Translations under genes and position numbers: made by a program
The notes under the pieces: model-generated
Seen by the model: only the letters and a program-made list of their open reading frames with translations
Database searches by the model: none
What the model was told of the DNA's origin: nothing
Assembly (NCBI GenBank): GCA_037130755.1
Contig: JBAXSI010000002.1
Span: 47,621 to 111,620 of the forward strand
Direction: 5' to 3'
DNA length: 64,000 bases
Origin: Actinomycetes bacterium
GTDB lineage: Bacteria > Actinomycetota > Actinomycetes > S36-B12
Shown: positions 2,700 through 63,823 of the stretch, piece by piece
Numbering within the stretch: position 1 is the stretch's first letter
Layout of the letters: every line of letters starts with the position of its first letter

Positions 2700-2714
2700 G
2701 AAGCCTTGTCGGAG

Positions 2715-2743
2715 GGTTTACATATCTATATGGTTTGTAAACC
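2715..2743. promoter_or_regulatory. AT-rich inverted repeat GGTTTACA-N13-TGTAAACC upstream of alkB (candidate TetR/AlkU operator overlapping the promoter)
   Basis: Perfect 8-bp arms read in sequence. Spacer tatctatatggtt contains -10-like TATCTA/TATAT. Lies 17 nt upstream of ATG 2760. Confidence 0.5.
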
Positions 2744-2759
2744 GAACTTCGGAGGTGCG

Positions 2760-4151
2760 ATGAACTGGCGCGACCGCAAGCGGTACCTGTGGCTCTTCGC
2801 ACTCCTCATGCCGTGCCTGCCCTTCGCCGCTGTCGGCCTGTTCATCGTCACGGGTTGGGGAGTCTGGCTGTGGCTGGGGCCGATCGTGATCCTCGGCGTC
2901 GTCCCGATCGTCGACGTGCTGGCCGGACGCGATTCCTCCAACCCGCCCGACGATGTCATCGGGCAGTTGGAGAACGACCGCTACTACCGGTGGATCACCT
3001 ACCTGTTCCTTCCGATCCAATACGCCGCTTTCGCCTTCGGATTCTGGACGATCGAGAACGGCGAGCTCACGACCGTCGAGAAGGTAGGACTGTCCGTCAC
3101 CGTCGGCTTCATCGCCGGCCTGGGAATCAACACGGCCCACGAGCTCGGGCACAAGCGCGAGAGCCACGAACGGTGGCTGGCCAAGATCGCCCTTGCGCAG
3201 AGTGTCTACGGCCACTTCCACATCGAGCACAACCGCGGGCATCACGTGCGCGTGGCGACGCCTGAGGATCCCGCGAGCAGTCGGGTAGCGGAGAGCTTCT
3301 ACCTGTTCTGGCCGAGGACTGTTTTCGGATCCGCCCGCAGCGCGTGGCGGATCGAGGCCAAGCGCTACGCGGCGCGCAAGCAGCAGCCGTTCCGTATCGG
3401 CAACGACGTGCTCAATGCCTGGCTCATCTCAGCCGTTCTCTGGCTCGTCATGGTGCTGTGGCTCGGAGTGGGCGTGCTGCCCTACCTCGTCATCCAGGCG
3501 GTGGTGGGATTCACGCTGCTCGAGGCCGTCAACTACCTCGAGCACTACGGGATGCTGCGCCAGCGGGTCGGATCCGGCGATCGCGAACGCTACGAGCGCG
3601 TCGAGCCGCGACACAGCTGGAACGCGAACAACATCGCCACCAACGTCCTGCTGTACCACCTGCAGCGGCACAGCGACCATCACGCGAACCCGACCCGCCG
3701 CTACCAGGCGCTACGCGACTACGAGGAGGCTCCGCAACTGCCATCGGGATATGCCTCGATGATTCTGCTGGCGCTGGTGCCGCCGCTGTGGCGGCGAGTG
3801 ATGGACGCGAAGGTGCTCGAGCACTTCGACGGTGACATGAGCCTGGCGAACATCCGCCCGAGCCGGCGCACCAAGGTCCTCGCGCGGTATCCCGTCTCAT
3901 CGAAGCCGCTTGGCGCGGCCGGGCCGGACGTGACGACTCAGCTCGTCACCGAGGATCCGCCTGTCGCGGGGAACGCACGCGGTGGCCGGTGTCCTGGCTG
4001 TGGCTACACCTACGACCAGGTGAGCGGGGACCCGCGGGAGGGCTTCCCCGCGGGGACACCCTGGACGTCAGTGCCCGACACCTGGATCTGCCCGGACTGC
4101 GGCGTTCGCGAGAAGTCGGATTTCGTCGCGCTCGACGGTGCCAGTACGTGA
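2760..4151 (+). CDS. alkB: alkane 1-monooxygenase fused to a C-terminal rubredoxin domain
   Basis: His boxes HELGHK, EHNRGHH, LQRHSDHH plus NYLEHYG. The C-terminus has two CxxC pairs (CPGCGY...CPDCGV). GGAGG RBS at 2751-2755 before ATG 2760. Confidence 0.9.
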   Translation: MNWRDRKRYLWLFALLMPCLPFAAVGLFIVTGWGVWLWLGPIVILGVVPIVDVLAGRDSSNPPDDVIGQLENDRYYRWITYLFLPIQYAAFAFGFWTIENGELTTVEKVGLSVTVGFIAGLGINTAHELGHKRESHERWLAKIALAQSVYGHFHIEHNRGHHVRVATPEDPASSRVAESFYLFWPRTVFGSARSAWRIEAKRYAARKQQPFRIGNDVLNAWLISAVLWLVMVLWLGVGVLPYLVIQAVVGFTLLEAVNYLEHYGMLRQRVGSGDRERYERVEPRHSWNANNIATNVLLYHLQRHSDHHANPTRRYQALRDYEEAPQLPSGYASMILLALVPPLWRRVMDAKVLEHFDGDMSLANIRPSRRTKVLARYPVSSKPLGAAGPDVTTQLVTEDPPVAGNARGGRCPGCGYTYDQVSGDPREGFPAGTPWTSVPDTWICPDCGVREKSDFVALDGAST

Positions 4152-5031: not shown

Positions 5032-5676
5032 GTGGAGGCGTTGCTCGCTGGTCTGGTCATCGGTCTCGGATCCGGCGTGGCACCGGGTCCGCTGCTTGCC
5101 CTGGCGATTGCCACGACGTTGCGCCGTGGACTCGCGGCCGGCCTCGCGGTCGCGTGCGGGCCGTTGGTGTCCGACGCCCTCATCATCGCCCTGACGGTGA
5201 CAGTGGTCAGCCAGCTCTCCGACACGGCCGTCACTGTGCTGTCGCTCATCGGTGGCCTCGTCATCGCGGCATTCGGCATTGAGACGCTGCGAGCCGCGCG
5301 CACGGCTGATGTCGACTCGATGCGCGAGGAAGTGGCCGAGCCCGAGCGCGGACGAATGCGCTCCCTTGCCAGTCATCCACTGGCGCAGGCAACGGTGCTC
5401 AACCTGCTGAATCCCGCCCCGTGGCTGTTCTGGGCCACCGCGGGAGCGGCCCTGCTCCTGTCCTTCTGGGATCGCAGCCCGGCTCTGGGTGTTGCCTACC
5501 TCGTGTTCTTCTACGCGGGGCTGGTCGGCAGCAAGGCGATCGTGGTGCTGGGCATCGCGGCCGGGCGTCATCGGCTTTCGACGCCGGTCTATCGCCTGAT
5601 CCTTGCGGGTGCTGGCGTGCTCATGCTGGTCCTTGCGGCCGTGTTCCTCGTCCGCGCTGCAACAACGCTGTGGTGA
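5032..5676 (+). CDS. LysE family amino-acid/homoserine-lactone exporter
   Basis: LLAGLVIGLGSGVAPGPLLALAI N-terminal LysE signature and about 6 TM segments. GTG 5032 has GGGAGG 8 nt upstream. Confidence 0.8.
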   Translation: MEALLAGLVIGLGSGVAPGPLLALAIATTLRRGLAAGLAVACGPLVSDALIIALTVTVVSQLSDTAVTVLSLIGGLVIAAFGIETLRAARTADVDSMREEVAEPERGRMRSLASHPLAQATVLNLLNPAPWLFWATAGAALLLSFWDRSPALGVAYLVFFYAGLVGSKAIVVLGIAAGRHRLSTPVYRLILAGAGVLMLVLAAVFLVRAATTLW

Positions 5677-5681
5677 CGGAC

Positions 5682-6467
5682 TCAGCCGAGCGCAGGGAAG
5701 GGTCCGACGAGGTCCCAGCCGCCGTCGGCGACGAGTGTTGTGCCGGTGATGTAGTCGCCGGCAGGCGACAGGCAGAACGCGATGATCGAGGCGACCTCTT
5801 CGGGTCGCTGCAGTCGCTTGAGCAGCATCATGTCGGCCACACCTTGCGGGTCCAGGCCGTAGCCCTCCCACGCCTCGGTGTGGACGATGCCAGGCGCCAC
5901 CGCGACGAGTCGGATGCCATAGCCGCCCCATTCGACGGCGAGGGTCTTCGTCAGGCTCTCCATCGCCGCTCGCGCGGCGGACGAGTGGGCCATGCCGGGG
6001 ATGCCGCGCTGTGGCGTCATCGTGACGCTCGCGACCTTCCCGTACCCGTTTGGGATCATCGATCGTGCAGCCACGCGTGTGGTGAGGTACCAGGGCGCAT
6101 CGAGGTTCAGGCGCGTCACGGCGCGAAAGCCGTTGGCCGACACGGCCTCGGCCGGGGCCATGAACTGGCCACCGGCGTTGTTGACCAGCAGGTCGATGCG
6201 GCCGTGCTGCTCGAGCACCCGATCGAGGGCCGCGTCGACGTCCTCGAACTCGCGCAGATCAACGGCGATCGCGGTGACCTGCCCGGTCTCGGCGAGGTCG
6301 CGCGTCTCCTCCAGGCGCTCCAGTCGGCGACCCAGGACGACCACCTTGGCCCCCAGCCGGGCCAGTTGAAGGGCGGTCGCGCGGCCGATGCCTGACCCGC
6401 CACCGGTGACGAGGGCGACGCGCCCGTCGAGGCAGCCGGGCTGCAGGACGTCGGCGGGATCGGTCAT
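5682..6467 (-). CDS. short-chain dehydrogenase/reductase (AtuB/AtuG-like position)
   Basis: TGGGSGIGRA Rossmann motif, NNAG, and a YxxxK-type active-site region. Divergent from the carboxylase operon. Confidence 0.85.
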   Translation of the reverse strand: MTDPADVLQPGCLDGRVALVTGGGSGIGRATALQLARLGAKVVVLGRRLERLEETRDLAETGQVTAIAVDLREFEDVDAALDRVLEQHGRIDLLVNNAGGQFMAPAEAVSANGFRAVTRLNLDAPWYLTTRVAARSMIPNGYGKVASVTMTPQRGIPGMAHSSAARAAMESLTKTLAVEWGGYGIRLVAVAPGIVHTEAWEGYGLDPQGVADMMLLKRLQRPEEVASIIAFCLSPAGDYITGTTLVADGGWDLVGPFPALG

Positions 6468-6509
6468 GGCTCCTCCGGGGGTCGGGTCGGGTCAGCCTAG
6501 CCGGACATC

Positions 6510-6541
6510 TTGACGCCCGTATCAACTTGACGCTAGCGTCA
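6510..6541 (+). promoter_or_regulatory. candidate promoter (-35 TTGACG 6510-6515, -10 TAGCGT 6534-6539) overlapped by the perfect 14-bp palindrome TGACGCTAGCGTCA (6528-6541)
   Basis: All elements read directly. The palindrome ends 5 nt before GTG 6547 and no SD is present, so a leaderless transcript is plausible. Confidence 0.5.
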
Positions 6542-6546
6542 GATTC

Positions 6547-8166
6547 GTGGCACCGGTCCTGCGCACCCACGTGGATCCGCGGTCCGACGAGTTCGCCGCC
6601 AACCGGGCGGCCCTGCTCGCGGCGATCGCGGAGATCAACACGCTCTACGGCCAGGTCGTCAGCGGGGGCGGCACCGCCGACCCGCAGAAGAACGCCAGGA
6701 CGGTGGCCCGCCATCGCGACCGCGGCAAGCTGCTGCCGCGCGAGCGCATCGCCCTGCTTCTGGACCCGGGCTCGGCCTTCCTCGAGCTCTCGCCCCTCGC
6801 CGGCTGGGGCACCGACGACGCCATGGGCGCGGGACTGGTGACCGGCATCGGCCGGGTCAGCGGCGTCGAGTGCATCGTCAGCGCCAACGACCCCACCGTG
6901 AAGGGCGGCTCGCAATCGCCGATCACGGTGACGAAGGCGCTGCGCGCGATGGAGATCGCGCACGACAACCGGCTGCCCCTCATCTCGCTCACCGAGTCTG
7001 GCGGCGCGGACCTCACCAAGCAGGTCGACGTCTTCAACCCCGGCGGTGCGACCTTCAAGAATCTCACCCGCCTGTCGGCTGCGGGCATCCCGACGATCAC
7101 GCTCGTCTTCGGTTCATCGACGGCGGGTGGCGCCTACGTGCCGGGCATGAGCGACTACGTGGTGCTGCAGAAGGACTCCGCACGCGTCTATCTCGGCGGG
7201 CCGCCGTTGGTGAAGATGGCCATCGACGAGGATGCCGACGACGAGACCCTCGGCGGTGCCGAGATGCATGCGCGGGTCTCCGGGCTCGCGGACTACCTCG
7301 CGCTCGACGAGCCCGATGCCCTGCGCATCGGACGTGACATCGTCGGCCACCTCAACTGGACGAAGCTCGGCCCCGGTCCGGCCCTCGCGCCGCGCGCGCC
7401 TCTGTACGACCCCGAGGAACTACTCGGCATCGCGTCGGCCGACATCAAGATCCCCTTCGAGGCCCGCGAGGTCCTCGCGCGGATCCTCGACGCGAGCGAG
7501 TTCGACGAGTTCAAGCCGCTGTACGGCTCCACGCTCGTCACGGGCTGGGGGCACCTCAACGGATTCCCGGTCGGAGTGCTCGCCAACAACGGGATCCTCT
7601 TCAGCGAGGAGGCCCACAAGGGTGCGCAGTTCATCCAGCTCTGCAATCGCATGGACGTGCCGATCCTGTTCCTGCAGAACATCACTGGCTTCATGGTCGG
7701 CACGAAGTACGAGCAGGGCGGCATCATCAAGGACGGCGCCAAGCTGATCAACGCGGTGAGCAACTGCGGTGTCCCGATGATCACGCTGATGATGGGTGCG
7801 TCCTACGGCGCCGGCAACTACGGGATGGCTGGACGGGCCTACGACCCGCGCTTCATCTTCACGTGGCCCAACCACCGGATCGCAGTGATGGGGCCCAAGC
7901 AGCTTGCCGGCGTCCTGACGATCGTCGCCCGACAGAAGACCGAGTCGGCGGGCCAGGTGTTCGACGAGGAGGGGTTCGCGCCCATCCGTGATGCATTCGA
8001 AAAGCAGGTCGAGGACGAGTCCACGGCACTGTTCGCGACCGGCCGGCTCTGGGACGACGGCGTCATCGACCCGCGCGACACCCGCACCGTATTGACGATG
8101 GCACTGTCCGCCGCCCACTCCGCCCCCGTCACCGGCACCGAGCGCTTCGGCGTCTTCCGGATGTGA
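6547..8166 (+). CDS. acyl-CoA carboxylase carboxyltransferase (beta) subunit, methylcrotonyl-/geranyl-CoA carboxylase type
   Basis: 539-aa carboxyltransferase fold throughout ([34 protein letters not shown]). Resembles MccB/AtuC. Confidence 0.9.
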
Positions 8167-10229
8167 TGACGATGACGACTCCGATTCGTTGCATCCTCGT
8201 CGCGAACCGCGGCGAGATCGCCTGTCGCGTCATGCGGACGGCACGCGCCCTCGGCATCGCCACGGTCGCCGTGCACTCCGACGTCGATGCCGATGCGCCA
8301 TTCGTGCGGCTGGCCGATCGCGCGGTGCACCTGCCGGGCGTGACCAGCGCAGAGACGTACCTCGACGGCGGCCTGGTCATCGAAGCGGCACGAAGGTCTG
8401 GCGCCGACGCGATCCACCCCGGCTACGGCTTCCTCTCGGAGAACCCGGGGTTTGCCCGGGCCGTGCAGGCGTCGGGACTGACATGGATCGGCCCGACTCC
8501 GGAGTCCATCGAGGCGATGGCCCTTAAGGTCGAGGCGAAGCGGATCGCGGAGGCAGCGGGTGTTCCGCTGGTGCCCGGTGCTGAGCTCCCCGCGGGCAGC
8601 ACGGACGAGGCGGCCTTGGCGATCGGCGACGGCGTGGGCTACCCCCTGCTCATCAAGGCGAGCGCCGGCGGCGGCGGCAAGGGCATGCGGGTGGTCACCG
8701 AGCGTGGCGACCTCGTTGAGTCCCTGCAGTCCGCGCGCCGTGAGGCCCGTAGCGCATTTGGCGACGACACGGTCTTCCTCGAGCGGTATCTGACTGGCGC
8801 CCGGCATGTCGAGGTCCAGGTGTTCGGTGACGTGCACGGTGCCGTCCTCCACCTCACTGAGCGGGAGTGCTCGATCCAGCGTCGTCACCAGAAGGTCGTC
8901 GAGGAGGCGCCCTCGCCCGGAGTCACCGATGCCGTGCGCGCCCGCCTGCACGAGTCCGCTGTCGCGCTTGCACGGACGATCGGCTACGTGGGCGCCGGCA
9001 CCGTGGAGTTCATGGTCTTCGGGTCGGGGGAGGAGCAGGAGTACTTCTTCCTGGAGATGAACACGCGGTTGCAGGTCGAGCACCCCGTCACGGAGCTGAT
9101 CACCGGTATCGACCTCGTCGCCTGGCAGATCGCTGTGGCGCAGGGACAGTCGCTGCCCTTGACGCAGGAGCAGGTCGAAGTGAGCGGCCATGCCATCGAG
9201 GTGCGGCTCTACGCCGAGGACCCGGCCAACGACTACCTGCCCGCGACGGGAGTCATTCACCGTTTCGCACCGCAGGAGCGCAGCGGCCTGCGCGTCGACT
9301 CCGGCGTGGTCAACGGCTCTGTCATCACGCCGTTCTACGACCCCATGCTTGCCAAGGTCATCGGCCATGCGCCGACTCGGGACCTGGCCGCATCCGTACT
9401 CGCCGACGGCCTGGCCCGAACGGCGATCCACGGTCCGGCCAACAACCGGGACTCGCTGGTCGCGATCCTCCGGTCGCCGGCCTTCCTCGCCGGTGACACG
9501 ACGACGGCTTTCCTCGACGAGCACCCCGATGTGTCGCGACCGGTGCTCGCGGCCGACGACCAGACCCGTCACGTCGTCGCCGCTGCGGCGGCCATCGCGG
9601 CGCTCGACGCTCCCGATCCGACCGTTCCGCTGGGCTGGCGCAACGTCCCGGGCGTGCCGGAGTTCGTCTCGCTGCGCAGTCGGACCGCAAGTGAGGTCAT
9701 CACGGTCCTGCAGGATGCCGGCGGCATCGTCCGCCTGGCCCGTACCGACGCCTCGCCCTTCGGCAGGGTCTTCGACCTCGACTCGTCCACCGTCGACGAC
9801 GTCGTCGTGCACGTTCGATACTCGACGCGGGACGGCGGGTCCGACATCGTGCATGTGCACGCGCAGGTGGGTGGAGTGGCAGCGGTGTGCATCGTCTCGC
9901 GCTATGGCGACGAGGTGTTCGTCGACGACGGACTCTGCAGTTCCGCGTGGACGATCGAGCCGCGGTTCGTCGACCACTCCACAGACGCCGCCGGGCACGG
10001 CCCCGCCACGAAGGTGCCGGGCACGATCACCGCGGTGCAGGTGGCGGCTGGTGACGCGGTCGTCGAGGGACAGGTGCTCGTCATCCTCGAGGCAATGAAG
10101 ATGGAGCACTCCATCCGCGCCGATGTCGACGGAGTGATCGAGCGGGTGCTCGTCGAGGTGGGTCAGTCGGTCGAGGCGCACACCGTCGTCGTCGAGTTCC
10201 GCGAGGATGGGGAGGCGTCGGATGGCTGA
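8163..10229 (+). CDS. acyl-CoA carboxylase biotin carboxylase/BCCP (alpha) subunit
   Basis: ATP-grasp biotin carboxylase N-terminus ([18 protein letters not shown]) and a C-terminal biotinyl domain with EAMKMEH. ATGA overlap with the beta subunit. Confidence 0.9.
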
Positions 10230-11649
10230 GCCCATTCGCATCGCCAACTGCAGCGGGTTCTTTGGCGACCGCATCGATGCGGCTCGCGAGATGGTCGAAG
10301 GCGGCCCCATCGACGTCCTCACCGGCGACTGGCTCGCCGAGTTGACGATGCTCATCCTGGCACGCCAGAAGATGAAGCACGGCAACGGTTTTGCTCGCAC
10401 CTTCATGACCCAGATGGAACAGGTCCTGGGCACCTGCCTCGATCGTGGAATCCGCGTCGTCAGCAACGCCGGCGGCCTCGATCCCGAAGGGCTCGGGGCG
10501 GCGGTGCATGAGCTGGCTTCGACACTCGGACTCAGCGTGAGTGTGGGTGTGGTCAGTGGCGACGACATCGCACCTCGGCTCGGCGACCTTGCGTCGACCG
10601 GCGAGGAGTTCATCAACCTCGACACCGGCGAGACCATGGCCGGCGCGGGTGTGCACCCGATCACGGCCAATGCCTACATCGGCGGCGAGCCGATCACCGC
10701 GGCACTCGACGCCGGCGCGCAGATCGTGATCACCGGACGCGTGACCGATGCTGCGCTCGTCATCGGGCCTGCGGCCTGGCGCCACGGCTGGGACTACTCA
10801 GCCGCCCGCGCGGGCGACGCGCAGATGCTCGATGCACTGGCTGGCGCACTCGTGGCCGGGCACGTCATCGAGTGCGGCGCGCAAGCCACTGGCGGCAACT
10901 ACGCGTTCTTCACGCAGGTGCCTGGCCTGGAGCACCCGGGCTTCCCCATTGCGGAGGTCGCTGCCGACGGCAGCAGCGTGATCACCAAGCACGAGGGCAC
11001 GGGCGGCATGGTCACTGTGGGCACCGTCACGGCGCAACTGCTCTACGAGGTCGCCGGGCGTGAGTACTTCAATCCCGACGTCACGGCCCTGTTCGACACG
11101 ATCCACCTCGATCAGGTGGGCCGCGACCGCGTGCTCGTGAGTGGGTCGACCGGCGCTCAACCGCCCGAGCGGCTCAAGGTCGCGATGAACTACCTCGGCG
11201 GTTTCCGCAACACGCTGACCCTCGTGATCACCGGGGGACTGGTCGAGGAGAAGGCCGACCTGGCCCTGCGCGCCTTCGCCGGGGTGACGCTGGCGGATGC
11301 CAGTGCACTCGGCGCGGCAGACCTCGCCGCGAAGTCGTCGCTGGAAGTCGCCGAACTGACTGCTCAGCTCCAGCGCAGCCCGCACACTGACCCGGCCCTG
11401 CCCGCCGACGCGCAATCGTTCCTGCGGATCACGGTCAAGGACCCCAACGACAAGGTGGTGGGCAAGGCCTTCACCGAGCCGCTCATCGAGGCGGCGTTGG
11501 CCTCGTACCCCGGCTACTTCCCGACCACGCCGCCGGGTCCAGCTGCGCCGTACGGCGTCTATTGGCCCACCACGGTGTCGCGCGACGCGGTTACGGCGAT
11601 TGCCACGGTCGACGGCGAGCAGGTCTGGTCAGGCGGTGCGTCGTCGTGA
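10222..11649 (+). CDS. AtuA-family (DUF1446) acyclic-terpene-utilisation protein, N-terminal module
   Basis: IRIANCSGFFGDRIDAAREMVEGGPIDVLTGDWLAELTM is the typical AtuA N-terminus. Start ATG 10222 overlaps the end of the alpha subunit. Confidence 0.8.
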   Translation: MAEPIRIANCSGFFGDRIDAAREMVEGGPIDVLTGDWLAELTMLILARQKMKHGNGFARTFMTQMEQVLGTCLDRGIRVVSNAGGLDPEGLGAAVHELASTLGLSVSVGVVSGDDIAPRLGDLASTGEEFINLDTGETMAGAGVHPITANAYIGGEPITAALDAGAQIVITGRVTDAALVIGPAAWRHGWDYSAARAGDAQMLDALAGALVAGHVIECGAQATGGNYAFFTQVPGLEHPGFPIAEVAADGSSVITKHEGTGGMVTVGTVTAQLLYEVAGREYFNPDVTALFDTIHLDQVGRDRVLVSGSTGAQPPERLKVAMNYLGGFRNTLTLVITGGLVEEKADLALRAFAGVTLADASALGAADLAAKSSLEVAELTAQLQRSPHTDPALPADAQSFLRITVKDPNDKVVGKAFTEPLIEAALASYPGYFPTTPPGPAAPYGVYWPTTVSRDAVTAIATVDGEQVWSGGASS

Positions 11650-12101
11650 ACGAGGCAGTCGTGGCACGCCCGCTGGGGACGTTCGTCGGGGCCCGTAGCG
11701 GCGACAAGGGCGGCAACGCCAACGTCGGCCTGTGGATCGTCGACCCAGTTGAGAGCGCGGCCGTCACCTTGGCGCACGGTGGGGTCGCCGCGCTCGAGCC
11801 GGACGCGTCCGCGGTCGCCCTCGCCGATGCGAGGTATGCGTGGCTGCTGACCGTCGTCACTGTCGACGGGATCCGACGTCAGCTGCCCGAGTGCGCCGAC
11901 CTCGAGGTCGATGTTCATCCCTTCCCGAACCTGCGCGCCGTCAACGTCGTGATCCACGGGGTCCTGGGGCGTGGCGTCGCCGAGTCGTCGCGCGTTGATC
12001 CTCAGGCGAAGGGCCTCGGCGAGCATGTCCGTTCGCGACTGGTCGAGATGCCAGCGCGCCTTCTTAGCCCCCTGCTCCCGGAGGACGGTGAGCAGTCGTG
12101 A
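11646..12101 (+). CDS. AtuA C-terminal-domain protein encoded as a separate ORF
   Basis: LGTFVGARSGDKGGNANVGLW resembles the C-terminal part of single-chain AtuA. GTGA overlap with the preceding ORF. Confidence 0.65.
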   Translation: MNEAVVARPLGTFVGARSGDKGGNANVGLWIVDPVESAAVTLAHGGVAALEPDASAVALADARYAWLLTVVTVDGIRRQLPECADLEVDVHPFPNLRAVNVVIHGVLGRGVAESSRVDPQAKGLGEHVRSRLVEMPARLLSPLLPEDGEQS

Positions 12102-12739
12102 CCGCTGAACTGGCGTCGGCCTCCCGTGAGCCGCTCTCCGAGCGCGGCCGGCGCACGCGCGAGCGACTCGTTGCAGCGGCGCGCGCCGTGTTCGAGGAGC
12201 GCGGCTTCGACGCGACGCGAATGAGCGACATTGCGGCAGCTGCGGGCGTCAGCCACGGAACCGTCTACACGTGGTTCCCGACGAAGGAGGACGTGCTGCA
12301 CGCGGCGGTCGACTCGGTGACCGAGGAGATGTACAGCGTCCTCAGCACGCCGGACATCACCGACCCCATCGAGCGGATCTCTGTTGCCAATGCCCGCTAC
12401 CTCGAGGTGCATCGCCAGACCGCACGCCTGATGGAGGTCGTCGCCCAGGCCGCGGTGAACGATGCGTCGTTCCGTGCCGTTCTCACCGACCTCCGACGCA
12501 CGCACGTAGACCGGGTGGCCAAGACCATCGAGAAGCTGCAGAAGGACGGGCACGCTGCCCGCAGCCTCGATCCGCGGATCGCCGCCGCCGCGCTGTGCGC
12601 GATGGTCGAGGGCTTCGCCCGCCACTGGATGGGCGGTCAGGGCGAGCTCGGCCCGGTTGCCCCTGAAGCCCCCGTTGTCCGAACGCTGACCGAACTATGG
12701 GCCCGATCCCTCGGGCTCATCGAACCTGGAGGTAACTGA
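12098..12739 (+). CDS. TetR family regulator embedded in the operon (AtuR-like)
   Basis: HTH RTRERLVAAARAVFEERGFDATRMSDIAAAAGVSHGTVYTWF. GTGA overlap upstream and ATGA-type overlap downstream. Confidence 0.85.
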   Translation: MTAELASASREPLSERGRRTRERLVAAARAVFEERGFDATRMSDIAAAAGVSHGTVYTWFPTKEDVLHAAVDSVTEEMYSVLSTPDITDPIERISVANARYLEVHRQTARLMEVVAQAAVNDASFRAVLTDLRRTHVDRVAKTIEKLQKDGHAARSLDPRIAAAALCAMVEGFARHWMGGQGELGPVAPEAPVVRTLTELWARSLGLIEPGGN

Positions 12740-13887
12740 TGCTGTTCACGGCCGAGCATGAGCAGTTCCGCAAGTCCGTGCGCAAGCTGGTCGAGGAGGA
12801 GATCAACCCGTACGCCGACGAGTGGGAGGCAGCGGAGATCTTCCCGGCGCACGAACTGTTTCCCAAGATAGGTGCCATCGGTGGATTCGGGCTCGAGTAC
12901 GACACCGAGTTCGGCGGCGGCGGCGCTGATCACTCCTTCACCCTCGTGCTTGCCGAGGAGCTCGGCCGTGCCGACGTGGGCGGCGTGCCGATGGCGATCG
13001 CAGTGCAGGCGGGCATGGCCACGCCGGCGCTCGCGCGCTTCGGCTCCGATGAGCTGAAGCGTCAGTTCCTGGAGCCGACCCTGGCCGGCGAGATGGTCTG
13101 CTCCATCGCGGTGAGCGAGCCAGGAGCTGGCTCGGACGTCGCGGGCATCACCACGCGGGCCCGACTCGACGGCGACGACTGGGTGATCAACGGTCGCAAG
13201 ATGTGGATCACGTCCGGCACGCAGTCCGACTGGGTGTGCCTGCTCGCGCGAACGTCCGACGAGGGCGGCTACCACGGCATGAGCATGATCATCGTGCCGA
13301 CGGACACGCCTGGGTTCAGTGTTGGCCGCAAGCTGAAGAAGATGGGCAACAACTCGTCGGACACTGCCGAGCTCGTCCTCGACGACGTTCGCGTTCCCGT
13401 GCGGTACACCATCGGCGAGGAGGGCCGCGGCTTCCAGATGCAGATGGCGCAGTTCCAGGACGAGCGCCTGTGGATCTGTTACATGGCCGTCACCGGTGCG
13501 CGGCGTGCCATCGACCGCACGATGGAGTACCTGCACATGCGCGAGGCGTTCGGCAAGCCGCTGATGGCCAACCAGTACATCCAGTACACGCTTGCTGAGT
13601 TGATCGCCGACATCGATGTGCTGCAGGGGTTCCTCCACCACACCGCCGAGCGGTACGTCGCAGGCGAGGACGTCACGCGCGCGGCGACGGTAGCGAAATT
13701 GCAGGCGGGCCGACTCAGCCGCCGGGTCGCCGACGCGTGCGTGCAGTTCCACGGCGGCATGGGCTATGCCGAGGAGCTGTGGGTGGCGCGCTACTTCCGC
13801 GACTGTCGGCTTGGCAGCATCGGCGGCGGCGCCGACGAGGTGATGCTGCGCATCATCACCGCGCTCGAGGGCATGGGCAAGCGGTGA
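12739..13887 (+). CDS. acyl-CoA dehydrogenase
   Basis: 382-aa ACAD fold, with C-terminal catalytic region QFHGGMGYAEE and GGGADEVM. Confidence 0.9.
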   Translation: MLFTAEHEQFRKSVRKLVEEEINPYADEWEAAEIFPAHELFPKIGAIGGFGLEYDTEFGGGGADHSFTLVLAEELGRADVGGVPMAIAVQAGMATPALARFGSDELKRQFLEPTLAGEMVCSIAVSEPGAGSDVAGITTRARLDGDDWVINGRKMWITSGTQSDWVCLLARTSDEGGYHGMSMIIVPTDTPGFSVGRKLKKMGNNSSDTAELVLDDVRVPVRYTIGEEGRGFQMQMAQFQDERLWICYMAVTGARRAIDRTMEYLHMREAFGKPLMANQYIQYTLAELIADIDVLQGFLHHTAERYVAGEDVTRAATVAKLQAGRLSRRVADACVQFHGGMGYAEELWVARYFRDCRLGSIGGGADEVMLRIITALEGMGKR

Positions 13888-14669
13888 CGTCGCAGGCGGC
13901 AGCGCTGTACGACGTCAGTGCCGGCGTGGCCACGATCACGCTGAACCGGCCCGAGGCTCGCAACCGGCTTGATGCCGAGGCGGTGGCGCTGCTCGTCCAG
14001 CACTTCGACGCGGCAGCGCAGGACCCGGGAGTGCGAGTAGTCGTGCTCACGGGCTCGGGCTCGACATTCTGCGCGGGCGCCGACCTTGCGGCTGCCGCGG
14101 CCGGCGACGAGGCCGGCTTCGCCGGTTCCGGACCTCAGGCGATGGTGCGCCTGCTGACAACGATGCTCGACCACCCAAAGCCGATTGTCGCCAAGGTGCA
14201 AGGGCACGTCGCCGGTGGTGGCAACGGACTGGTCGCCGCGTGCGACATCGCCGTCGCGTCGAGCGACGCGCTCTTCGCCTTCAGCGAGGTCCGGGTTGGT
14301 GTCGCCCCCGCGGTGATCTCCGTCGCGTGCTTGGCGGTGATGGGTCGACGCGATGCGCAGGAGTTGTTCCTGACCGGCGAGCGGGTCGACGCCCAACGGG
14401 TCCGCGAGGCTGGGCTCGTCACGCGAATCGCTCCGCCCGACGCGCTCGACGCGGTCGTGGCCGGGTATGCGGCGCTGCTGATGGCTGGTGGGCCTGAGGC
14501 GCTGGCGAAGGCCAAGAGGCTGATCCGCCGGGTCCCCGGACTGTCGCGTGACGAGGCGTTCGCCGAGACGGCGGAACTGTCGGCGAGCCTGTTCTCCTCC
14601 GCGGAGGCTCACGAGGGGATGACGGCATACCTGGAGAAGCGCCCGCCGTCGTGGACGGCCTCAGCCTGA
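13884..14669 (+). CDS. enoyl-CoA hydratase/isomerase family protein
   Basis: ITLNRPEARNRL, FCAGADL and GGGNGLVAACD crotonase motifs. GTG 13884 overlaps the ACAD stop (GTGA). ORF-track start 13737 rejected. Confidence 0.9.
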   Translation: MTSQAAALYDVSAGVATITLNRPEARNRLDAEAVALLVQHFDAAAQDPGVRVVVLTGSGSTFCAGADLAAAAAGDEAGFAGSGPQAMVRLLTTMLDHPKPIVAKVQGHVAGGGNGLVAACDIAVASSDALFAFSEVRVGVAPAVISVACLAVMGRRDAQELFLTGERVDAQRVREAGLVTRIAPPDALDAVVAGYAALLMAGGPEALAKAKRLIRRVPGLSRDEAFAETAELSASLFSSAEAHEGMTAYLEKRPPSWTASA

Positions 14670-15227
14670 CGTCGTCGGTGTCGCCTCGGCCAGTAGCCCC
14701 AGGTGGTCGAGAACCCGGTAGGCAACGCCCTGATCGGTGAGCTCGCCGCTGCGGACCAGTGCGATGAAGGTCGGCGTGTCAACGACCAGCACCTTGCCGA
14801 ACTCGTCACGGTCGAACTCCGGGTCGGCCACCTTCGTGCAGCCGATCGCGAGGGCGACGAACCGCTCGACGGTGGAGTTCGCGGTCATCCAGTTGCTGCC
14901 GATGACCTCGATGCTCGACGCCCGATAGCCGGTCTCCTCCAGAAGTTCACGAGCGGCCGTCTCCTCGATGCTCTCGCCGTCGCGTCCGTAGCCGCCGGGA
15001 AGCTCGTCGAGAACCTTCATCGGGCCTGGGCGGAACTGGCGCACCAGGAGGAAGTCCCCCGAGGGGACGCGTGCCACGACAGCGACGGTCCGGGAGCCCT
15101 TGACGACGTCCCACTCGGACACCTCGCCGTCGGGCATCTGGAACGTGCGGCGCTTGACGGTGACCCAACTGGAGTAGGCAGGGTCCTCCGAGAGAAGCTG
15201 CCACTCCTCGTCGGCCTGCGGGTCCAT
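14661..15227 (-). CDS. NUDIX hydrolase
   Basis: Nudix box GGYGRDGESIEETAARELLEETGY. Confidence 0.85.
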   Translation of the reverse strand: MDPQADEEWQLLSEDPAYSSWVTVKRRTFQMPDGEVSEWDVVKGSRTVAVVARVPSGDFLLVRQFRPGPMKVLDELPGGYGRDGESIEETAARELLEETGYRASSIEVIGSNWMTANSTVERFVALAIGCTKVADPEFDRDEFGKVLVVDTPTFIALVRSGELTDQGVAYRVLDHLGLLAEATPTTSG

Positions 15228-15256
15228 GGACGCTCATAGTAGAGCGGGCGACCGGC

Positions 15257-15496
15257 GTGTTGCCGGATGACCGCGAGGTGGATGATGAGCAGGTGACCTC
15301 GCAGACCGCGCGCCGCCCTGTATGGCGGGTCGATGCAGCGTGCCCCCTGCGGCTAGGCCAGCCCTGCAACCTGTGCCACCCCGAGGCGCATCTTGGTCCG
15401 CAGGACTGCCCCACGGTGGCTCTCGTCATGGAGGACGATCTCCTGCGGGCCGAACTGGTCAGGCGCCGGTCAGCCGAGGCGAACGGCTCGGCCTAG
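15257..15496 (+). CDS. small Cys-rich hypothetical protein
   Basis: CPLRLGQPCNLCHPEAHLGPQDCPTVALVMEDD resembles a small conserved actinobacterial Cys4 protein. Start uncertain; the 3' end overlaps the convergent gene by 27 nt. Confidence 0.35.
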   Translation: MLPDDREVDDEQVTSQTARRPVWRVDAACPLRLGQPCNLCHPEAHLGPQDCPTVALVMEDDLLRAELVRRRSAEANGSA

Positions 15497-16576
15497 GTAC
15501 TGGCCGAACGCATCGAACGCGGTAGAAGCCCGCGCCATGTGCTGTGGGCTGAGTGGCCGGAACGGCACGAACTCGATGACGACCTCGGTGCGCTTGATGC
15601 TTCGCGTCCACGTCCCGACGGCCCGACCGTCGATGCACAGCGTGGGGCGGAAGACACCGTTGCCGCCCGGGACGACCTGTTCGAAGTCGTCCGGGCCGAG
15701 CTGCACGCTGCGGTCCTTGTAGCCCAGGATGAATTCGTCGAAGCCGGGCAGGGCCACGGCAGCCGACCGAGTTCGGCCGATGCCGTCCATCCTCTCGTCG
15801 AGCTCCTTCGTCAGCCACACCTCACCGCCGCGGAACGAACCTGGCACCAGCCGACCGACGTTGGACGCGACGCCGGCCTTCACGTCCGTGAGCGTGAGCC
15901 CCGACCAGCCCGCGAAGTCCCGCATGTTAGCTGGACCGTGGCTGCGGAAGAACCGGAAGGTGAGCTCGGTGAGCGCCTCCGATCTTTCGAATCGCACCTG
16001 ACTTGGCGCCCAGGTGTCGATGAGGGCGAACGTCTGCTCGCTGCCCTGATTCGGCCCCAGGCAGATGACGCCCGTCTGTGCGGCGTATCCGAGCAGGTGG
16101 TAGCCACGTTGTCCGTCGGTGGCGATGCCCGCCTGCTGCAGTGCTGCCAGGCAGTCGGTGCGAGTCAGGCGGTCCGTCTCGCGCAGCGCCGCCTCGAGAA
16201 CTGCTGAACCTCGCTCCGCCTCAGAAACGTCCAGGCCGAGCTGCCGGCGTCGGGCGACAGAGGCGTTCAGCGCCCTGATGCCGGTCAGCTCCAGCATCCA
16301 TCGGACATCACGTGCGGGGACGATGTGGATGGTTCCGCGCATGGGCCACGTACGGACGACCTCAGCCCGTTCGAACGCCTCATCGACATCCGTCTCCTGA
16401 GCGCCGGCCAGCCGGACGCCGAGTGACCACTTGCCGCTCGCGGCGTCCTGAGCCTGCATGGCGCCGAACCACGTCGCGATCTGATCGAACGATGAGGGCT
16501 GATACCCGGCGAGCAGCAGGCTGTGCAGACGTGCTCGGGCAACGGCTGACTCCGACAGTTCGCGCACGGGTTGCAT
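15470..16576 (-). CDS. winged-helix DNA-binding protein of the YcaQ/AlkZ (HTH_42) DNA-glycosylase family
   Basis: FGAMQAQDAASGKWSLGVR, VVRTWPMRGTIHIVPARDVRWML and GWSGLTLTD are typical of this family. Confidence 0.75.
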   Translation of the reverse strand: MQPVRELSESAVARARLHSLLLAGYQPSSFDQIATWFGAMQAQDAASGKWSLGVRLAGAQETDVDEAFERAEVVRTWPMRGTIHIVPARDVRWMLELTGIRALNASVARRRQLGLDVSEAERGSAVLEAALRETDRLTRTDCLAALQQAGIATDGQRGYHLLGYAAQTGVICLGPNQGSEQTFALIDTWAPSQVRFERSEALTELTFRFFRSHGPANMRDFAGWSGLTLTDVKAGVASNVGRLVPGSFRGGEVWLTKELDERMDGIGRTRSAAVALPGFDEFILGYKDRSVQLGPDDFEQVVPGGNGVFRPTLCIDGRAVGTWTRSIKRTEVVIEFVPFRPLSPQHMARASTAFDAFGQYLGRAVRLG

Positions 16577-17665: not shown

Positions 17666-17693
17666 TCGCCTCATCACGTTGCCTGGAGGAACC

Positions 17694-19229
17694 ATGTCCG
17701 CACGACTCTCGGTCGCTTCGATCCTCGCCGACTCGGCACGTCGGTTCCCTGACAAGGAGGCGTTGATCCTCGGTGACACCCGACTGACGTACCAGCAGGT
17801 CTGGGGGATGGCCCGCCGGTTCGCGGCCGTCCTGCGCAACGACGGGGTGGGTCCGGGCGACCGCGTCGCCCTGCTGCTGCCCAACATCCCGCACTTCGCC
17901 TTCGCGTACTACGGCGCGATCGCGATCGGCGCCACGGTGGTGCCGGTGCACGCCCTTCTCAAGGCCGACGAGATCGCCTACACGCTGACCGACTCCGAAT
18001 GCGTTGCCCTGATCACCGCTGCGCCGCTGCTTCCCGAGGCAGCGAAGGGCGCCGAGATCGCGGGCGTACGCCTGTACTCCGTGCTGGACTCGGATGCGGA
18101 CTTCTCAGACGTCGCCCGCATCGATGCGATGGCCATGCAGGTCGAGCCGATCTCCGCGCTCGTGCCGCGCCGTCCCCAGGACGAGGCCGTGATCCTCTAC
18201 ACGTCGGGCACCACCGGTAAGCCGAAGGGCGCGGTCCTCACGCAGGACAACATCCTGTGGAACACCACGATGTGCGCTTTCGACATCATCGACATCAAGA
18301 GCGACGACGTCGCACTCGGTGCGCTGCCGCTGTTCCACTCGTTCGGCCAGACCTGCGTGATGAACGCCGGCTTCCGTGTCGGCGCCACGATCGTCCTCAT
18401 CCCGAGGTTCGACGGCGTCGCGGCACTGGACCTCATGGTCAAGGAGAACGTGACCTACTTCGCGGGCGTGCCGACGATGTACATGGCCCTCCTCGCCGCC
18501 ACCGAGCAGACCGAGTCCCGGCCGAAGCTGCGACTGGCCGCCAGCGGTGGCGCCGCCATCCCGGTCGCCGTGATCACGAAGGTCAAGGAGGTCTTCGGGG
18601 CGGAGATCCTCGAGGGCTACGGACTGTCGGAGACGTCGCCCGTCGCGACGTTCAACCAGCAGGTCTACGGTCGCAAGCCGGGCTCGATCGGCTGCTCCAT
18701 CTGGGGTGTCGACGTCGCGATCGCCAACGCCGACCTCGAGGGCGCAATCGAACTGCTGCCGAGTGGCACCAACGGCGAGATCGTCATCCGCGGCCACAAC
18801 GTCTTCGACGGGTACCTCAACAAGCCCGAGGCCACGGCGGCGGTCATGGTCGACGGCTGGTTCCGCACAGGAGACATCGGCTACGAGGATGAGGAAGGCT
18901 TCTTCTTCATCGTCGACCGCAAGAAGGACCTCATCATCCGCGGCGGCTTCAACGTCTACCCGCGCGAGGTGGAGGAAGTCATCGCCCAGCATCCAGCGGT
19001 GGCACAGGTTGCCGTCGTCGGCGTCGCCGACGATCACTACGGCGAGGAGATCCACGCGGTAGTCGTCCTCGTGACACCGGACGCCATCGACGAGGTCGAG
19101 CTCGGCGAGTGGGTCAAGGAGCGGATCGGCCTGCACAAGTACCCTCGCCGGATTCACATCCGCGAGAGTCTTCCCACCGGGCCGTCGGGCAAGGTGCTCA
19201 AGAGAGTCATTGTTGAGGAACTCGGCTAG
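17694..19229 (+). CDS. long-chain fatty-acid-CoA ligase (AMP-binding enzyme)
   Basis: YTSGTTGKPKGA AMP motif, GYGLSET, TGDIG, and a C-terminal PSGKVLKR. GGAGGA RBS before ATG 17694. Confidence 0.9.
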   Translation: MSARLSVASILADSARRFPDKEALILGDTRLTYQQVWGMARRFAAVLRNDGVGPGDRVALLLPNIPHFAFAYYGAIAIGATVVPVHALLKADEIAYTLTDSECVALITAAPLLPEAAKGAEIAGVRLYSVLDSDADFSDVARIDAMAMQVEPISALVPRRPQDEAVILYTSGTTGKPKGAVLTQDNILWNTTMCAFDIIDIKSDDVALGALPLFHSFGQTCVMNAGFRVGATIVLIPRFDGVAALDLMVKENVTYFAGVPTMYMALLAATEQTESRPKLRLAASGGAAIPVAVITKVKEVFGAEILEGYGLSETSPVATFNQQVYGRKPGSIGCSIWGVDVAIANADLEGAIELLPSGTNGEIVIRGHNVFDGYLNKPEATAAVMVDGWFRTGDIGYEDEEGFFFIVDRKKDLIIRGGFNVYPREVEEVIAQHPAVAQVAVVGVADDHYGEEIHAVVVLVTPDAIDEVELGEWVKERIGLHKYPRRIHIRESLPTGPSGKVLKRVIVEELG

Positions 19230-61254: not shown

Positions 61255-62643
61255 TCACTGCACGATGCGGACTGGGGTCTCCTTGAGCGCGATCGGCCCC
61301 GCCACGGGCTTGCAGGTGTTGGCCGTGTTGCAGACCTGCGTGTAGCCCTCCGGGGCGGTGTAGATGCCGGTGTTGTTGACTGCCCAGGCGATGATCGAGG
61401 GGATCCCGTTCTTCTCCACGAAGCAGTTGACGACGACGCCGTCGTCGTTGCAGCCGTTGAACGTCGAGCCCACGAGCCACTGGTGGATGATCCGCAGGCC
61501 CTCGACGGCGCCCGAGTCGTTCGTCAACTGCATGCCGAGCAGCGGATACGGCTGCGGCGTCCAGATGTACCAGTAGGTGCGGGCGAAGCCGAGGTGCAGT
61601 GAATCCAACTCCGTCTGCACGACCCAGTCTCGGGCTTTCGGTCCCTCGATGGTCTGGTGCGGATTGCTGGGGCCGGGCCCCGCGAGTCCGTAGTTGAGCT
61701 CGGTGTCCCACACGGGCTTGTCAGGAGCCCCCGCCGCGCTGATCGCCTGCTTGACCGTGGCGATGAAGGCAGCGCGCTCGTCGGTGGTCTGCAGGCTCGA
61801 CGGGTACAGGTGCGCGGCGAACACGTCGATGGGCCAGCCCAACTGTCCCAGTGCCGCGAGGTAGCGCGGGAAGAACCGCGAGAAGCTGCCGGCCAGGCGC
61901 ACCGTGGTGCTCGCTGCGACCACCTTGGCCTTCGGGTCGCCCGTGTGGATGATGTCGGCCGCGCTCTTGGTCATCTTCGCGAGCGTCTCCGGCGTGCCGT
62001 TCCAGAACATGACGAGGCTCGCCTCGTTCCAGATCTGGTAGGACGTGATCTTGCCGGCGTAGCGCTTCACTACGGCCCGCACGAAGGCGTCCCATGCCGC
62101 CAGGCTCTTGGGCGTGGACGCTGCACCGGGCCCGGGGTAGTCGGTCTTCTTGATCCTCGAGGCGTTCCACGTCGGGGTCCCGCCGAGCACCAGGAGGATG
62201 TCCTTGACGCCGTGCGCCCGCGCGTTCGTCACGGCGGCGTCAAGCGGCTTCCAGTTGTACTGGCCCTTCACCGCCTCGATCTGCGACCAGTTCGTGCCGT
62301 TGTCCCACAAGCGGAGCGCGCCGAACGGATCGTTCCGATCCGGCCAGGCGCCGTCCTGGACGCCTGCGACGTGCATGCCCGTGATCGTGGCGGGGATGAC
62401 CTCGCCCATGTGCGCACCGCTGGGCGTGGCCGAGGGCGTCGCGGATGCCGAAGCGCTCGGGGTGAGGGCCACTGATGCCGACGGAGTCGGGACGGTGGAC
62501 CCGGCTGCGGTCGGCACCGCGCTGACGGCGGCGGCGCTCGATGCGGGTGTCCCGGTGTCCGTCGATGACGAGCAGCCGGCGATCGCGACGGCGAGCACAG
62601 TCAGGCCAATGGCGACGTGGGTGGTGATGAGGCGGCGAGGCAC
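61255..62643 (-). CDS. secreted lipoprotein glycoside hydrolase (clan GH-A TIM-barrel type; family not assigned)
   Basis: Lipobox IAGC and a Pro/Ser/Thr/Ala linker. Acid/base-type IWNEAS and nucleophile-type TELNYG contexts. Cys-containing C-terminal domain. Confidence 0.65.
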   Translation of the reverse strand: MPRRLITTHVAIGLTVLAVAIAGCSSSTDTGTPASSAAAVSAVPTAAGSTVPTPSASVALTPSASASATPSATPSGAHMGEVIPATITGMHVAGVQDGAWPDRNDPFGALRLWDNGTNWSQIEAVKGQYNWKPLDAAVTNARAHGVKDILLVLGGTPTWNASRIKKTDYPGPGAASTPKSLAAWDAFVRAVVKRYAGKITSYQIWNEASLVMFWNGTPETLAKMTKSAADIIHTGDPKAKVVAASTTVRLAGSFSRFFPRYLAALGQLGWPIDVFAAHLYPSSLQTTDERAAFIATVKQAISAAGAPDKPVWDTELNYGLAGPGPSNPHQTIEGPKARDWVVQTELDSLHLGFARTYWYIWTPQPYPLLGMQLTNDSGAVEGLRIIHQWLVGSTFNGCNDDGVVVNCFVEKNGIPSIIAWAVNNTGIYTAPEGYTQVCNTANTCKPVAGPIALKETPVRIVQ

Positions 62644-63663: not shown

Positions 63664-63823
63664 CCGCCCAGTATCGGTCGGAGCGACTCCTGTGTCAGGC
63701 CGGCAGGGAGTGCAAGGGCTGTCATTGCTGTGTCGTTGGTCGCACGAGCGGCACGTCGGTTCGACTCGAAGGCTCGGCGGCAGGAGTATGTGGATACGAC
63801 CGTCATCGCGGAGAGGCTTCCAG

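Follow-up and report, generated by a model that had tools for sequence, protein, structure and literature searches.

The 64,000-nucleotide stretch of DNA analysed here (hereafter the window; contig JBAXSI010000002.1, positions 47,621 to 111,620, of the actinobacterial assembly GCA_037130755.1) carries, between its positions 5,682 and 14,669, a dehydrogenase gene and a divergent seven-gene operon resembling the acyclic terpene utilization (Atu) genes of Pseudomonas. Our analysis makes it probable that the operon forms a module under TetR control for taking 3-methyl branches off isoprenoid-type acyl-CoAs longer than C5, with AtuA, encoded here in two pieces, serving as the lyase. The chemistry would be that of the Pseudomonas Atu pathway, and citronellate, geranate or the breakdown products of phytol or pristane are candidate substrates. 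The locus represents a conserved version of an already known type of pathway and not a new kind of system. Its genes are the following.

5682..6467, minus strand: short-chain dehydrogenase/reductase (SDR), divergent to the operon (Pfam adh_short; adh_short_C2, E 3e-48).
6547..8166, plus strand: carboxyltransferase (CT, beta subunit) of geranyl-CoA carboxylase (GCC)/AccD2 type; first gene, probably leaderless (Carboxyl_trans, E 6e-134).
8163..10229, plus strand: biotin carboxylase-biotin carboxyl carrier protein (BC-BCCP, alpha subunit) of the 3-methylcrotonyl-CoA carboxylase (MCC)/GCC lineage (Biotin_carb_N, CPSase_L_D2, Biotin_carb_C, Biotin_lipoyl).
10222..11649, plus strand: large half of AtuA, 475 aa, predicted catalytic subunit of a C-C lyase (PF07287, E 4e-149).
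11646..12101, plus strand: small half of AtuA, 151 aa, a separate open reading frame (ORF) with a ferredoxin-like domain (PF23544 AtuA_ferredoxin, E 1e-12); GTGA overlap.
12098..12739, plus strand: TetR-family regulator inside the operon, presumed autorepressor (TetR_N, E 3e-17, and TetR_C_24).
12739..13887, plus strand: acyl-CoA dehydrogenase (ACAD) of medium/long-chain type, not like isovaleryl-CoA dehydrogenase (IVD); three ACAD domains.
13884..14669, plus strand: enoyl-CoA hydratase (crotonase; ECH_1, E 4e-54).

In the pathway that we propose, the ACAD would first form a 3-methyl-2-enoyl-CoA, and the gamma-methyl group of this intermediate would then be carboxylated by the CT and the BC-BCCP, presumably as an alpha6-beta6 complex of the MCC/GCC lineage. 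Hydration by the crotonase would yield a tertiary 3-hydroxy-3-(carboxymethyl)acyl-CoA, which the two AtuA polypeptides, acting as a heteromeric retro-aldol lyase, would cleave to acetate and a 3-oxoacyl-CoA; the latter would enter ordinary thiolysis. The SDR might contribute an accessory redox step.

The lyase assignment of AtuA comes from structure comparison. When searched directly against PDB by sequence, the large half had no match and the small half gave noise only. An AlphaFold (AF2) model of the large half (pLDDT 88, pTM 0.83) had a single Foldseek match in PDB below 1e-3, 9evf_A (E 2e-22, TM 0.70/0.73), an entry named 'citramalate lyase - ADP - pyruvate complex', and a profile search with the large half retrieved 9erq_A (E 1.7e-4), which its depositors label 'Acyclic terpene utilization AtuA family protein | Citramalate lyase, subunit A (cmlA)'. 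A profile of the small half found nothing in PDB, and Foldseek with the model of a fused AtuA homologue matched chain A of CmlA only, with no match to the small subunit. A two-subunit construct of Raoultella cmlAB converts citramalate directly to pyruvate and acetate (bioRxiv 10.64898/2026.01.16.699985), and the adjacent 'AtuA-like' genes thnQ and thnS are reported to encode a lyase acting on a tertiary 3-hydroxyacyl-CoA to give a 3-oxoacyl-CoA (2025 review PMC12016498). The role of AtuA, which the sequence-only reading of this DNA had described as unknown, has thus been overtaken by an AtuA-family subunit A in the solved citramalate lyase 9erq/9evf and by the report on ThnQS.

The CmlAB and ThnQS reactions have their chemistry in common: a C-C bond adjacent to a tertiary hydroxyl is cleaved, which is the step that comes after hydration in the Atu pathway. 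Taken together with the ThnQS report, the fold match to CmlA leads us to read the operon as encoding dehydrogenation, gamma-carboxylation, hydration and acetate-releasing cleavage. No 3-hydroxy-3-methylglutaryl-CoA (HMG-CoA) lyase family member and no thiolase was present among the window ORFs scanned against Pfam. The two-piece AtuA is therefore, on the strength of the structural model and of these parallels, probably the long-missing C-C lyase of the Atu pathway. For the more specific proposal, that its two polypeptides form a heteromeric CoA-ester lyase which carries out the acetate-releasing step in place of an enzyme of the HMG-CoA lyase family, we consider the chances to be evenly balanced.

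A comparable gene pair is found in Escherichia coli O157:H7 Sakai, where ECs_0760 (456 aa, PF07287) is followed by ECs_0759 (105 aa, DUF4387) with a 4-nt overlap. The pair adjoins genes for glutamate mutase and methylaspartase, a neighbourhood already noted for a DUF1446 gene (PMC4682846). ECs_0760 is equal in length to the CmlA of PDB, and the two genes probably encode citramalate lyase CmlAB. As a side observation, ECs_0760 is annotated '3-methylaspartate ammonia-lyase' and ECs_0759 'acyl-CoA synthetase' (L085:6933-8617; NC_002695.2 846933-848617), and both product names look wrong. A small ORF overlapping the 3' end of a PF07287 gene by 4 nt is present in the window, in E. coli O157 and in Thermoanaerobaculia. 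A comparison of the small AtuA half with the DUF4387 partner by hhalign gave no significant similarity.

The sequence-only reading had noticed that AtuA is split and had named a sequencing frameshift as the alternative. The split is genuine and conserved. In a synteny comparison of 80 genome loci (designated by L-numbers), 15 species-level genomes (L001-L014, L020) have the two ORFs in different frames with the same 4-nt stop/start overlap, which rules out a frameshift as its cause; the best-scoring homologues of the large half, which have no C domain, and an identical sequence on independent contigs of the Joint Genome Institute (JGI) rule it out further. Of the 120 homologues that match the large ORF best, 100 are under 500 aa and lack the C domain; such proteins occupy ranks 1-81 (about 70-100% identity) and occur further down the list to about 66%, and fused AtuA proteins of 618-685 aa, 66-70% identical to the large ORF, appear from rank 82 on. 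The small ORF has 1779 homologues, the best 120 of which are all 136-167 aa long, and one homologue has been named 'AtuA-related protein' by NCBI. In a whole-library search the small-half family was modest (889 clusters), with a length distribution blurred by fragments. A single AtuA ORF of 580-638 aa is found in Acidimicrobiia, Frankia, Mycobacterium and Nocardia. In the alignment, the break point falls in a linker that is variable in length and poorly conserved in the fused relatives, one of which was modelled as one body (pTM 0.84) with a low-confidence linker. These comparisons indicate that the AtuA split is a clade-level gene fission.

Two-ORF AtuA, again with 4-nt overlaps, also occurs in Thermoanaerobaculia (Acidobacteriota), so that the split architecture is recurrent, the acidobacterial split being independent of the actinobacterial one. 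In one such metagenome-assembled genome (MAG; L056:3145-10482), a PF07287 ORF (7875-9359) is followed by a 111-aa PF23544 ORF (9356-9691) and a crotonase gene (9688-10482), all joined by 4-nt overlaps, and the layout is similar in L043-L079. Given its presence in 15 related genomes and in Acidobacteriota, and the name already given by NCBI, the split is not new to this locus.

Two side observations concern the AtuA halves. In a close relative represented by a long-read MAG (L015:8065-9882, 73% identity), the two parts form a single-frame ORF of 605 aa, which is either a re-fusion or an indel error; the biotin-carboxylase matches of L003, L015 and L016 are fragmented, which makes assembly indels likely in these genomes. 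Near the N-terminus of the small half stands an invariant GARSGDKGG.AN.G motif, and near the C-terminus a DPQAKGLGE motif is almost invariant. Given the ADP in the CmlA crystal structure, a role of the small half in binding nucleotide or CoA phosphate is conceivable, though this is pure speculation.

The carboxylase bears on the substrate. MCC-beta of Pseudomonas aeruginosa (PaMCC) has Phe191 after a three-residue insertion, and GCC-beta (PaGCC) has Gly162 and no insertion; exchanging Phe191 and Gly162 exchanges substrate preference, and these features have been proposed as annotation rules (Jurado et al. 2015, PMC4673880). Gly166 of the window CT (codon 7042-7044) aligns without gaps opposite PaGCC Gly162, and the window CT has neither the Phe of MCC-beta nor the three-residue insertion. 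The pocket segment reads VFNPG-GATF in the window CT, IFVEG-ARGF in PaGCC and VFPDREHFGRIF in MCC; the MCCs of the alignment have a REH, RDH or KEH insertion together with the Phe, and neighbouring residues of GCC type are also common to the window CT and PaGCC. Proven MCCs all have the motif RQDEVFPDREHFGRIF without change, and the orphan paralogue AccD2 departs from it (Ehebauer et al. 2015, PMC4347857). The window CT keeps the flanking Phe residues of this motif and lacks its central Phe (Phe191 in P. aeruginosa, Phe157 in Mycobacterium tuberculosis) and the insertion.

The phylogeny agrees with the pocket. In a neighbour-joining tree of CTs (483 columns, 100 bootstraps; rooted on divergent acidobacterial CTs, with no outgroup of propionyl-CoA carboxylase (PCC)), the window CT, every retrieved actinobacterial AtuA-linked CT and PaGCC-beta form a clade with 100% bootstrap, and a second, separate clade with the same support unites PaMCC, human MCCB and two more MCC-type structures. 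The sequence-only reading had named a firm clustering with the leucine-pathway carboxylase, joined with a response to leucine only, as an outcome that would speak against an Atu-like set; the tree places the CT with PaGCC-beta instead. The Atu-like set is thus borne out by a CT that combines the two published discriminators of GCC-beta with a place beside the Pseudomonas GCC-beta in the tree. On this sequence evidence the carboxyltransferase is not a leucine-pathway MCC, and the substrate class is partly readable, as larger than 3-methylcrotonyl-CoA. The earlier statement that the substrate cannot be read from sequence therefore does not stand for the size class, and stands for the exact substrate. 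A literature search on actinobacterial GCC found nothing relevant.

Another AtuA-linked CT feature was observed in passing. CTs from MAGs of Acidimicrobiales and Actinomycetes (L025:4319-5911, L030:4525-6021, L031:1-1551) carry a Gly-rich insertion of 10-11 residues (RGGGGGG.DPEAAL) just upstream of the specificity segment, which suggests a further pocket subclass.

These results bear directly on a Liu-type leucine/isovalerate pathway, in which the carboxylase would be MCC, the hydratase methylglutaconyl-CoA hydratase and the ACAD IVD, with AtuA replacing HMG-CoA lyase. P. aeruginosa MCC beta and alpha are the best overall PDB matches of the two carboxylase subunits (for the alpha subunit 3u9s, 537 bits), GCC-type enzymes retain weak 3-methylcrotonyl-CoA activity (PMC4673880), and in Thermoanaerobaculia (L056) a CT with the MCC-type Phe and three-residue insertion lies near the split AtuA, which hints that AtuA-type lyases may also serve in leucine-type pathways somewhere. 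The window CT, however, lacks the Phe191 and REH insertion that proven MCCs share and branches with GCC-beta. Moreover, the ACAD resembles mycobacterial ACADs and the long-chain type (LCAD) and matches the IVD model weakly, no HMG-CoA-lyase-like domain occurs among the scanned window ORFs, and a knockout of the related mycobacterial accD2-accA2 grows normally on isovalerate (Ehebauer et al. 2015, PMC4347857). We therefore regard the leucine pathway as very unlikely. An anabolic role, with the carboxylase providing lipid or polyketide synthesis with an unusual carboxylated extender unit or building block that the other genes only tailor, is the least probable reading and can hardly be maintained. 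Actinobacterial acyl-CoA carboxylases do often feed such synthesis (PMC4347857), but the CT belongs to the gamma-carboxylating MCC/GCC lineage and not to the alpha-carboxylating lineage of PCC and acetyl-CoA carboxylase, its conserved partners are catabolic enzyme types, the scanned window ORFs include no polyketide or fatty acid synthase genes, and mycobacterial accD1 and accD2 knockouts have no lipid phenotype (PMC4347857).

The remaining enzymes match the Atu set in enzyme class. The SDR has two joint-best PDB matches, the human peroxisomal trans-2-enoyl-CoA reductase (PECR) 1yxm (E 2e-51) and the Pseudomonas protein 6lln, a 'putative dehydrogenase involved in catabolism of citronellol' (E 2.7e-51), so it looks both AtuB-like and PECR-like; in most close relatives its gene lies next to the operon in divergent orientation. 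The ACAD is closest in PDB to the mycobacterial ACADs 3oib and 3r7k, then to human LCAD 8w0t, and its match to the NCBIfam isovaleryl-CoA dehydrogenase model is weak (E 4e-16). For the crotonase, PRK07827 comes closest among the NCBIfam models (249 bits, cutoff 283); the gamma-carboxygeranoyl-CoA hydratase model PRK05674, of AtuE type, gave 175 bits against a cutoff of 426, and AtuE in PDB (4zu2) gave 95 bits compared with 174 for the best crotonases. By these scores the crotonase is not an AtuE equivalog. The earlier suggestion of one homologue for each atu function is consequently sound in an orthologue-like sense for the carboxylase, AtuA and the SDR, and at family level only for the ACAD and the hydratase.

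The expression of the operon would be controlled from a short conserved block upstream of the CT, which has the following parts.

6510..6541, plus strand: putative promoter/operator block of 32 nt, TTGACGnnnGTATCAAnTTGACGnTAnCGTCA, conserved upstream of the CT.
6510-6525, plus strand: O1, an imperfect palindrome (TTGACGCCCGTATCAA) within the 32-nt block.
6528-6541, plus strand: O2, a perfect 7+7 palindrome (TGACGCTAGCGTCA).
6510-6515 and 6534-6539, plus strand: predicted promoter, with -35 TTGACG, an 18-nt spacer and -10 TAGCGT (actinobacterial TANNNT rule and conservation).

The block is nearly invariant in 17 genomes, conservation being lost further upstream, and its end is 7 nt ahead of the start codon (6 nt in two genomes). 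Position 6547 is the first possible CT start and no Shine-Dalgarno sequence precedes it; from these facts and the conserved block we infer a leaderless transcript, the promoter hexamers and repression by TetR. The embedded TetR would bind the tandem palindromes that overlap the predicted -10 element and would be released by a pathway acid or CoA ester. This design appears parallel to that of Pseudomonas AtuR, a regulator whose inverted-repeat binding site overlaps the promoter elements and which is responsive to citronellic acid and to further fatty acids (bioRxiv 10.1101/2025.09.24.678253). No credible further copy of the operator was found in the 64 kb window, and a terminator consensus scan of 5400-15400 found nothing. 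The mid-operon position of the TetR gene, which the sequence-only reading had pointed out, holds in all close relatives: it is the same in L001-L016 and L020, at 73-89% identity.

The gene set and its layout were checked separately. All eight ORFs are intact at the coordinates listed, each with one terminal stop, and their Pfam content confirms that the proposed gene set is real. The window has a GC content of about 68% throughout, and third-position GC (GC3) is of coding type (0.83-0.92) for the six operon-region ORFs captured by the GC3 filter. Alternative starts exist for the biotin carboxylase (ATG 8166 or 8172) and for the small AtuA ORF (GTG 11661, the start called by JGI). From first to last, the overlaps at the six plus-strand junctions are 4, 8, 4, 4, 1 and 4 nt. 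The overlaps of 4 or 8 nt that had been claimed for all six are therefore right for five, the TetR/ACAD junction at 12739 being TGATG with a 1-nt overlap, and the stoichiometric co-translation drawn from them is more than overlaps can show. Since 13 of the 37 same-strand junctions in the window overlap, seven of them outside the operon, the run of six is the mark of a tight operon, and overlaps of this sort are in themselves nothing unusual. An independent JGI freshwater metagenome contig, Ga0194057_10000461 (3300021072), carries this locus too, at 99-100% identity and with essentially the same gene calls, so that the layout is not an accident of assembly. The whole arrangement, internal TetR included, is kept in L001-L016 and L020, and the CT-BC-AtuA core is conserved across Actinomycetota.

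Several points weigh against branch removal from isoprenoid-type acyl-CoAs with the split AtuA as lyase. The CT scores higher against PaMCC-beta 3u9r (600 bits, 56% identity) than against PaGCC-beta 5ikl (519 bits, 49%), and the GCC branch is long in a tree built by a simple method with no PCC outgroup. CmlA is only 18% identical to the large half and its substrate is a free acid, not a CoA ester. PF23544 and the CmlB-like DUF4387 gave hhalign E-values of 0.21-0.43 with shallow and deeper alignments, whether run locally or globally. PMC12016498 quotes the ThnQS result as unpublished, and in Pseudomonas, according to work cited in that review, the lyase step was assigned experimentally to LiuE and not to AtuA. 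The hydratase and the dehydrogenase do not appear from their sequences to be orthologues of AtuE and AtuD, a scan for the sigma-70 consensus over 5400-15400 did not score the conserved block, and the host belongs to an uncultured lineage of MAGs.

Three genes in the surroundings of the operon are the following.

2706-4151, plus strand: AlkB-rubredoxin fusion (FA_desaturase and Rubredoxin in one 481-aa ORF).
Ending at 4747, plus strand: AlkB-side TetR (TetR_N and TetR_C_35), after the AlkB-rubredoxin gene.
17679..19229, plus strand: acyl-CoA synthetase, a candidate activating enzyme in loose association, 3 kb downstream (AMP-binding, E 7e-95).

The AlkB fusion, on which the sequence-only reading had partly based a hydrocarbon/isoprenoid degradation region, is real, but its link to the operon is weak. 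The AlkB unit has its own TetR and no copy of the operon's operator, and AlkB is adjacent to the SDR only in L007, L008, L010 and L014, that is in 4 of the roughly 11 related genomes with enough flank. AlkB and its TetR are a separate regulatory unit, possibly in a functional relation with the operon, and AlkB as part of the operon unit was accordingly downgraded. A hydrocarbon/isoprenoid region stays plausible on these data, with weak support. A LysE-type exporter gene lies 3' of the AlkB/TetR unit. The synthetase recurs downstream of the operon in L008, L010, L012, L013 and L015 (74-88% identity). Elsewhere in the window the scanned ORFs are unrelated genes, such as those for phosphoenolpyruvate carboxykinase, ornithine transcarbamylase, transporters and a chitinase-like protein.

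AlkB also enters the question of whether the same chemistry acts on substrates other than acyclic terpenes, namely other beta-branched or alicyclic carboxylic acids such as derivatives of methyl-branched alkanes or naphthenic acids, or side chains of sterols or hopanoids, in which case the locus would be an AccD2-type module and not 'Atu'. An alkane hydroxylase of AlkB-rubredoxin type adjoins the operon in five genomes, the hydratase is not an AtuE orthologue and the ACAD appears not to be an AtuD orthologue, the mycobacterial AccD2-AccA2, whose substrate is unknown, is paralogous to MCC and has a diverged pocket motif (PMC4347857), the AtuA-like ThnQS acts on an alicyclic CoA ester (PMC12016498), and Pseudomonas atu promoters are triggered by straight and branched fatty acids in general (bioRxiv 10.1101/2025.09.24.678253). 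On the other side, GCC has exactly the same pocket residue, Gly, 6lln from citronellol catabolism is a match of the SDR, and no sequence feature points to a particular non-terpenoid substrate. We judge such substrates to be unlikely, though a good deal less so than a leucine pathway, and favour removal of 3-methyl branches from isoprenoid-type acyl-CoAs.

Two further observations on the window were made in passing. The operon is followed immediately downstream by minus-strand genes for a NUDIX hydrolase and an AlkZ-like DNA glycosylase (14661-16576), which occupy the same position in several relatives (L001, L004, L005, L012, L013, L015), with no obvious functional link. Two adjacent minus-strand ORFs of 462 and 419 aa (61255-62643 and 62653-63912) have a GC3 of coding type (0.92 and 0.84) and no Pfam match at E 1e-5.

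The locus joins two long-standing gaps, namely the function of AtuA and the question of what the AccD2-type, MCC-paralogous carboxylases of actinobacteria carboxylate. Since it combines a carboxylase with the GCC signature, a hydratase, an ACAD and an AtuA related to CmlA, and no gene of the HMG-CoA lyase family was found, it provides a clean and testable case for AtuA as the lyase, and the natural split offers two separately expressible subunits for reconstitution. If the two polypeptides do form a heteromeric CoA-ester lyase, a function would be assigned to canonical AtuA, and the orphan AccD2-AccA2-type carboxylases and linked AtuA of Actinomycetota, mycobacteria included, would become a catabolic module for isoprenoid or beta-methyl-branched lipids. 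Our results also suggest that abundant freshwater actinobacteria might be able to degrade isoprenoid acids, for example those derived from phytol. The value of the locus is that of a test case, the split and the gene order being already widespread in databases.

Among known systems, the Atu pathway of P. aeruginosa and P. citronellolis (atuR, atuABCDEFGH; GCC AtuC/AtuF) shares the enzyme classes of the locus, including a Gly-type CT, BC-BCCP, AtuA, SDR, ACAD, crotonase and TetR, and its operator is likewise an inverted repeat overlapping promoter elements, as we infer for the window. Here, however, AtuA is encoded by two overlapping ORFs, the TetR gene is internal and not divergent, the gene order is different, the hydratase and apparently the dehydrogenase belong to other subfamilies than AtuE and AtuD, and the operon contains no AtuG or AtuH. 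In addition, the operator sequence is unrelated, the first gene is probably leaderless, and the host is a high-GC freshwater actinobacterium. The Liu/MCC systems (PaMCC 3u9r; AccD1-AccA1 of M. tuberculosis) share the gamma-carboxylating lineage, with the highest overall scores to PaMCC, and the pathway logic of dehydrogenase, carboxylase, hydratase and lyase. They differ from the locus in the MCC Phe and three-residue insertion, which are absent here, in the separate clade of the window CT, in the lack of HMG-CoA lyase among the scanned ORFs and in an ACAD that is not IVD-like. The mycobacterial AccD2-AccA2 resembles the window carboxylase in its MCC-lineage CT with a divergent pocket motif. 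The loci retrieved from Mycobacterium and Nocardia have the order CT-BC-ECH-AtuA-ACAD, and their CTs fall in the clade of the window CT at 60-61% identity; in contrast to the window, their AtuA is fused, their pocket residue is Ala ('FVHA-GRIF') and not Gly, and an embedded TetR was not detected in them, their orthology to M. tuberculosis AccD2 being presumed.

For the lyase itself, CmlAB (9erq/9evf; Raoultella planticola; E. coli O157 ECs_0760/ECs_0759) has an AtuA-family large subunit of the same fold (TM 0.70/0.73), a small partner gene with a 4-nt overlap in E. coli O157, and C-C cleavage beside a tertiary hydroxyl with release of acetate. It differs in its 18% identity, its free dicarboxylic acid substrate, its glutamate/methylaspartate context and its DUF4387 partner, for which profile comparison detects no kinship with PF23544. 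ThnQ/ThnS, from anaerobic naphthalene degradation in culture N47, is likened here by description: it differs in its alicyclic substrate, the absence of a carboxylase, a strictly anaerobic host and data that are unpublished, and it resembles the locus in its two adjacent AtuA-like genes and in the type of reaction that the proposed pathway would need.

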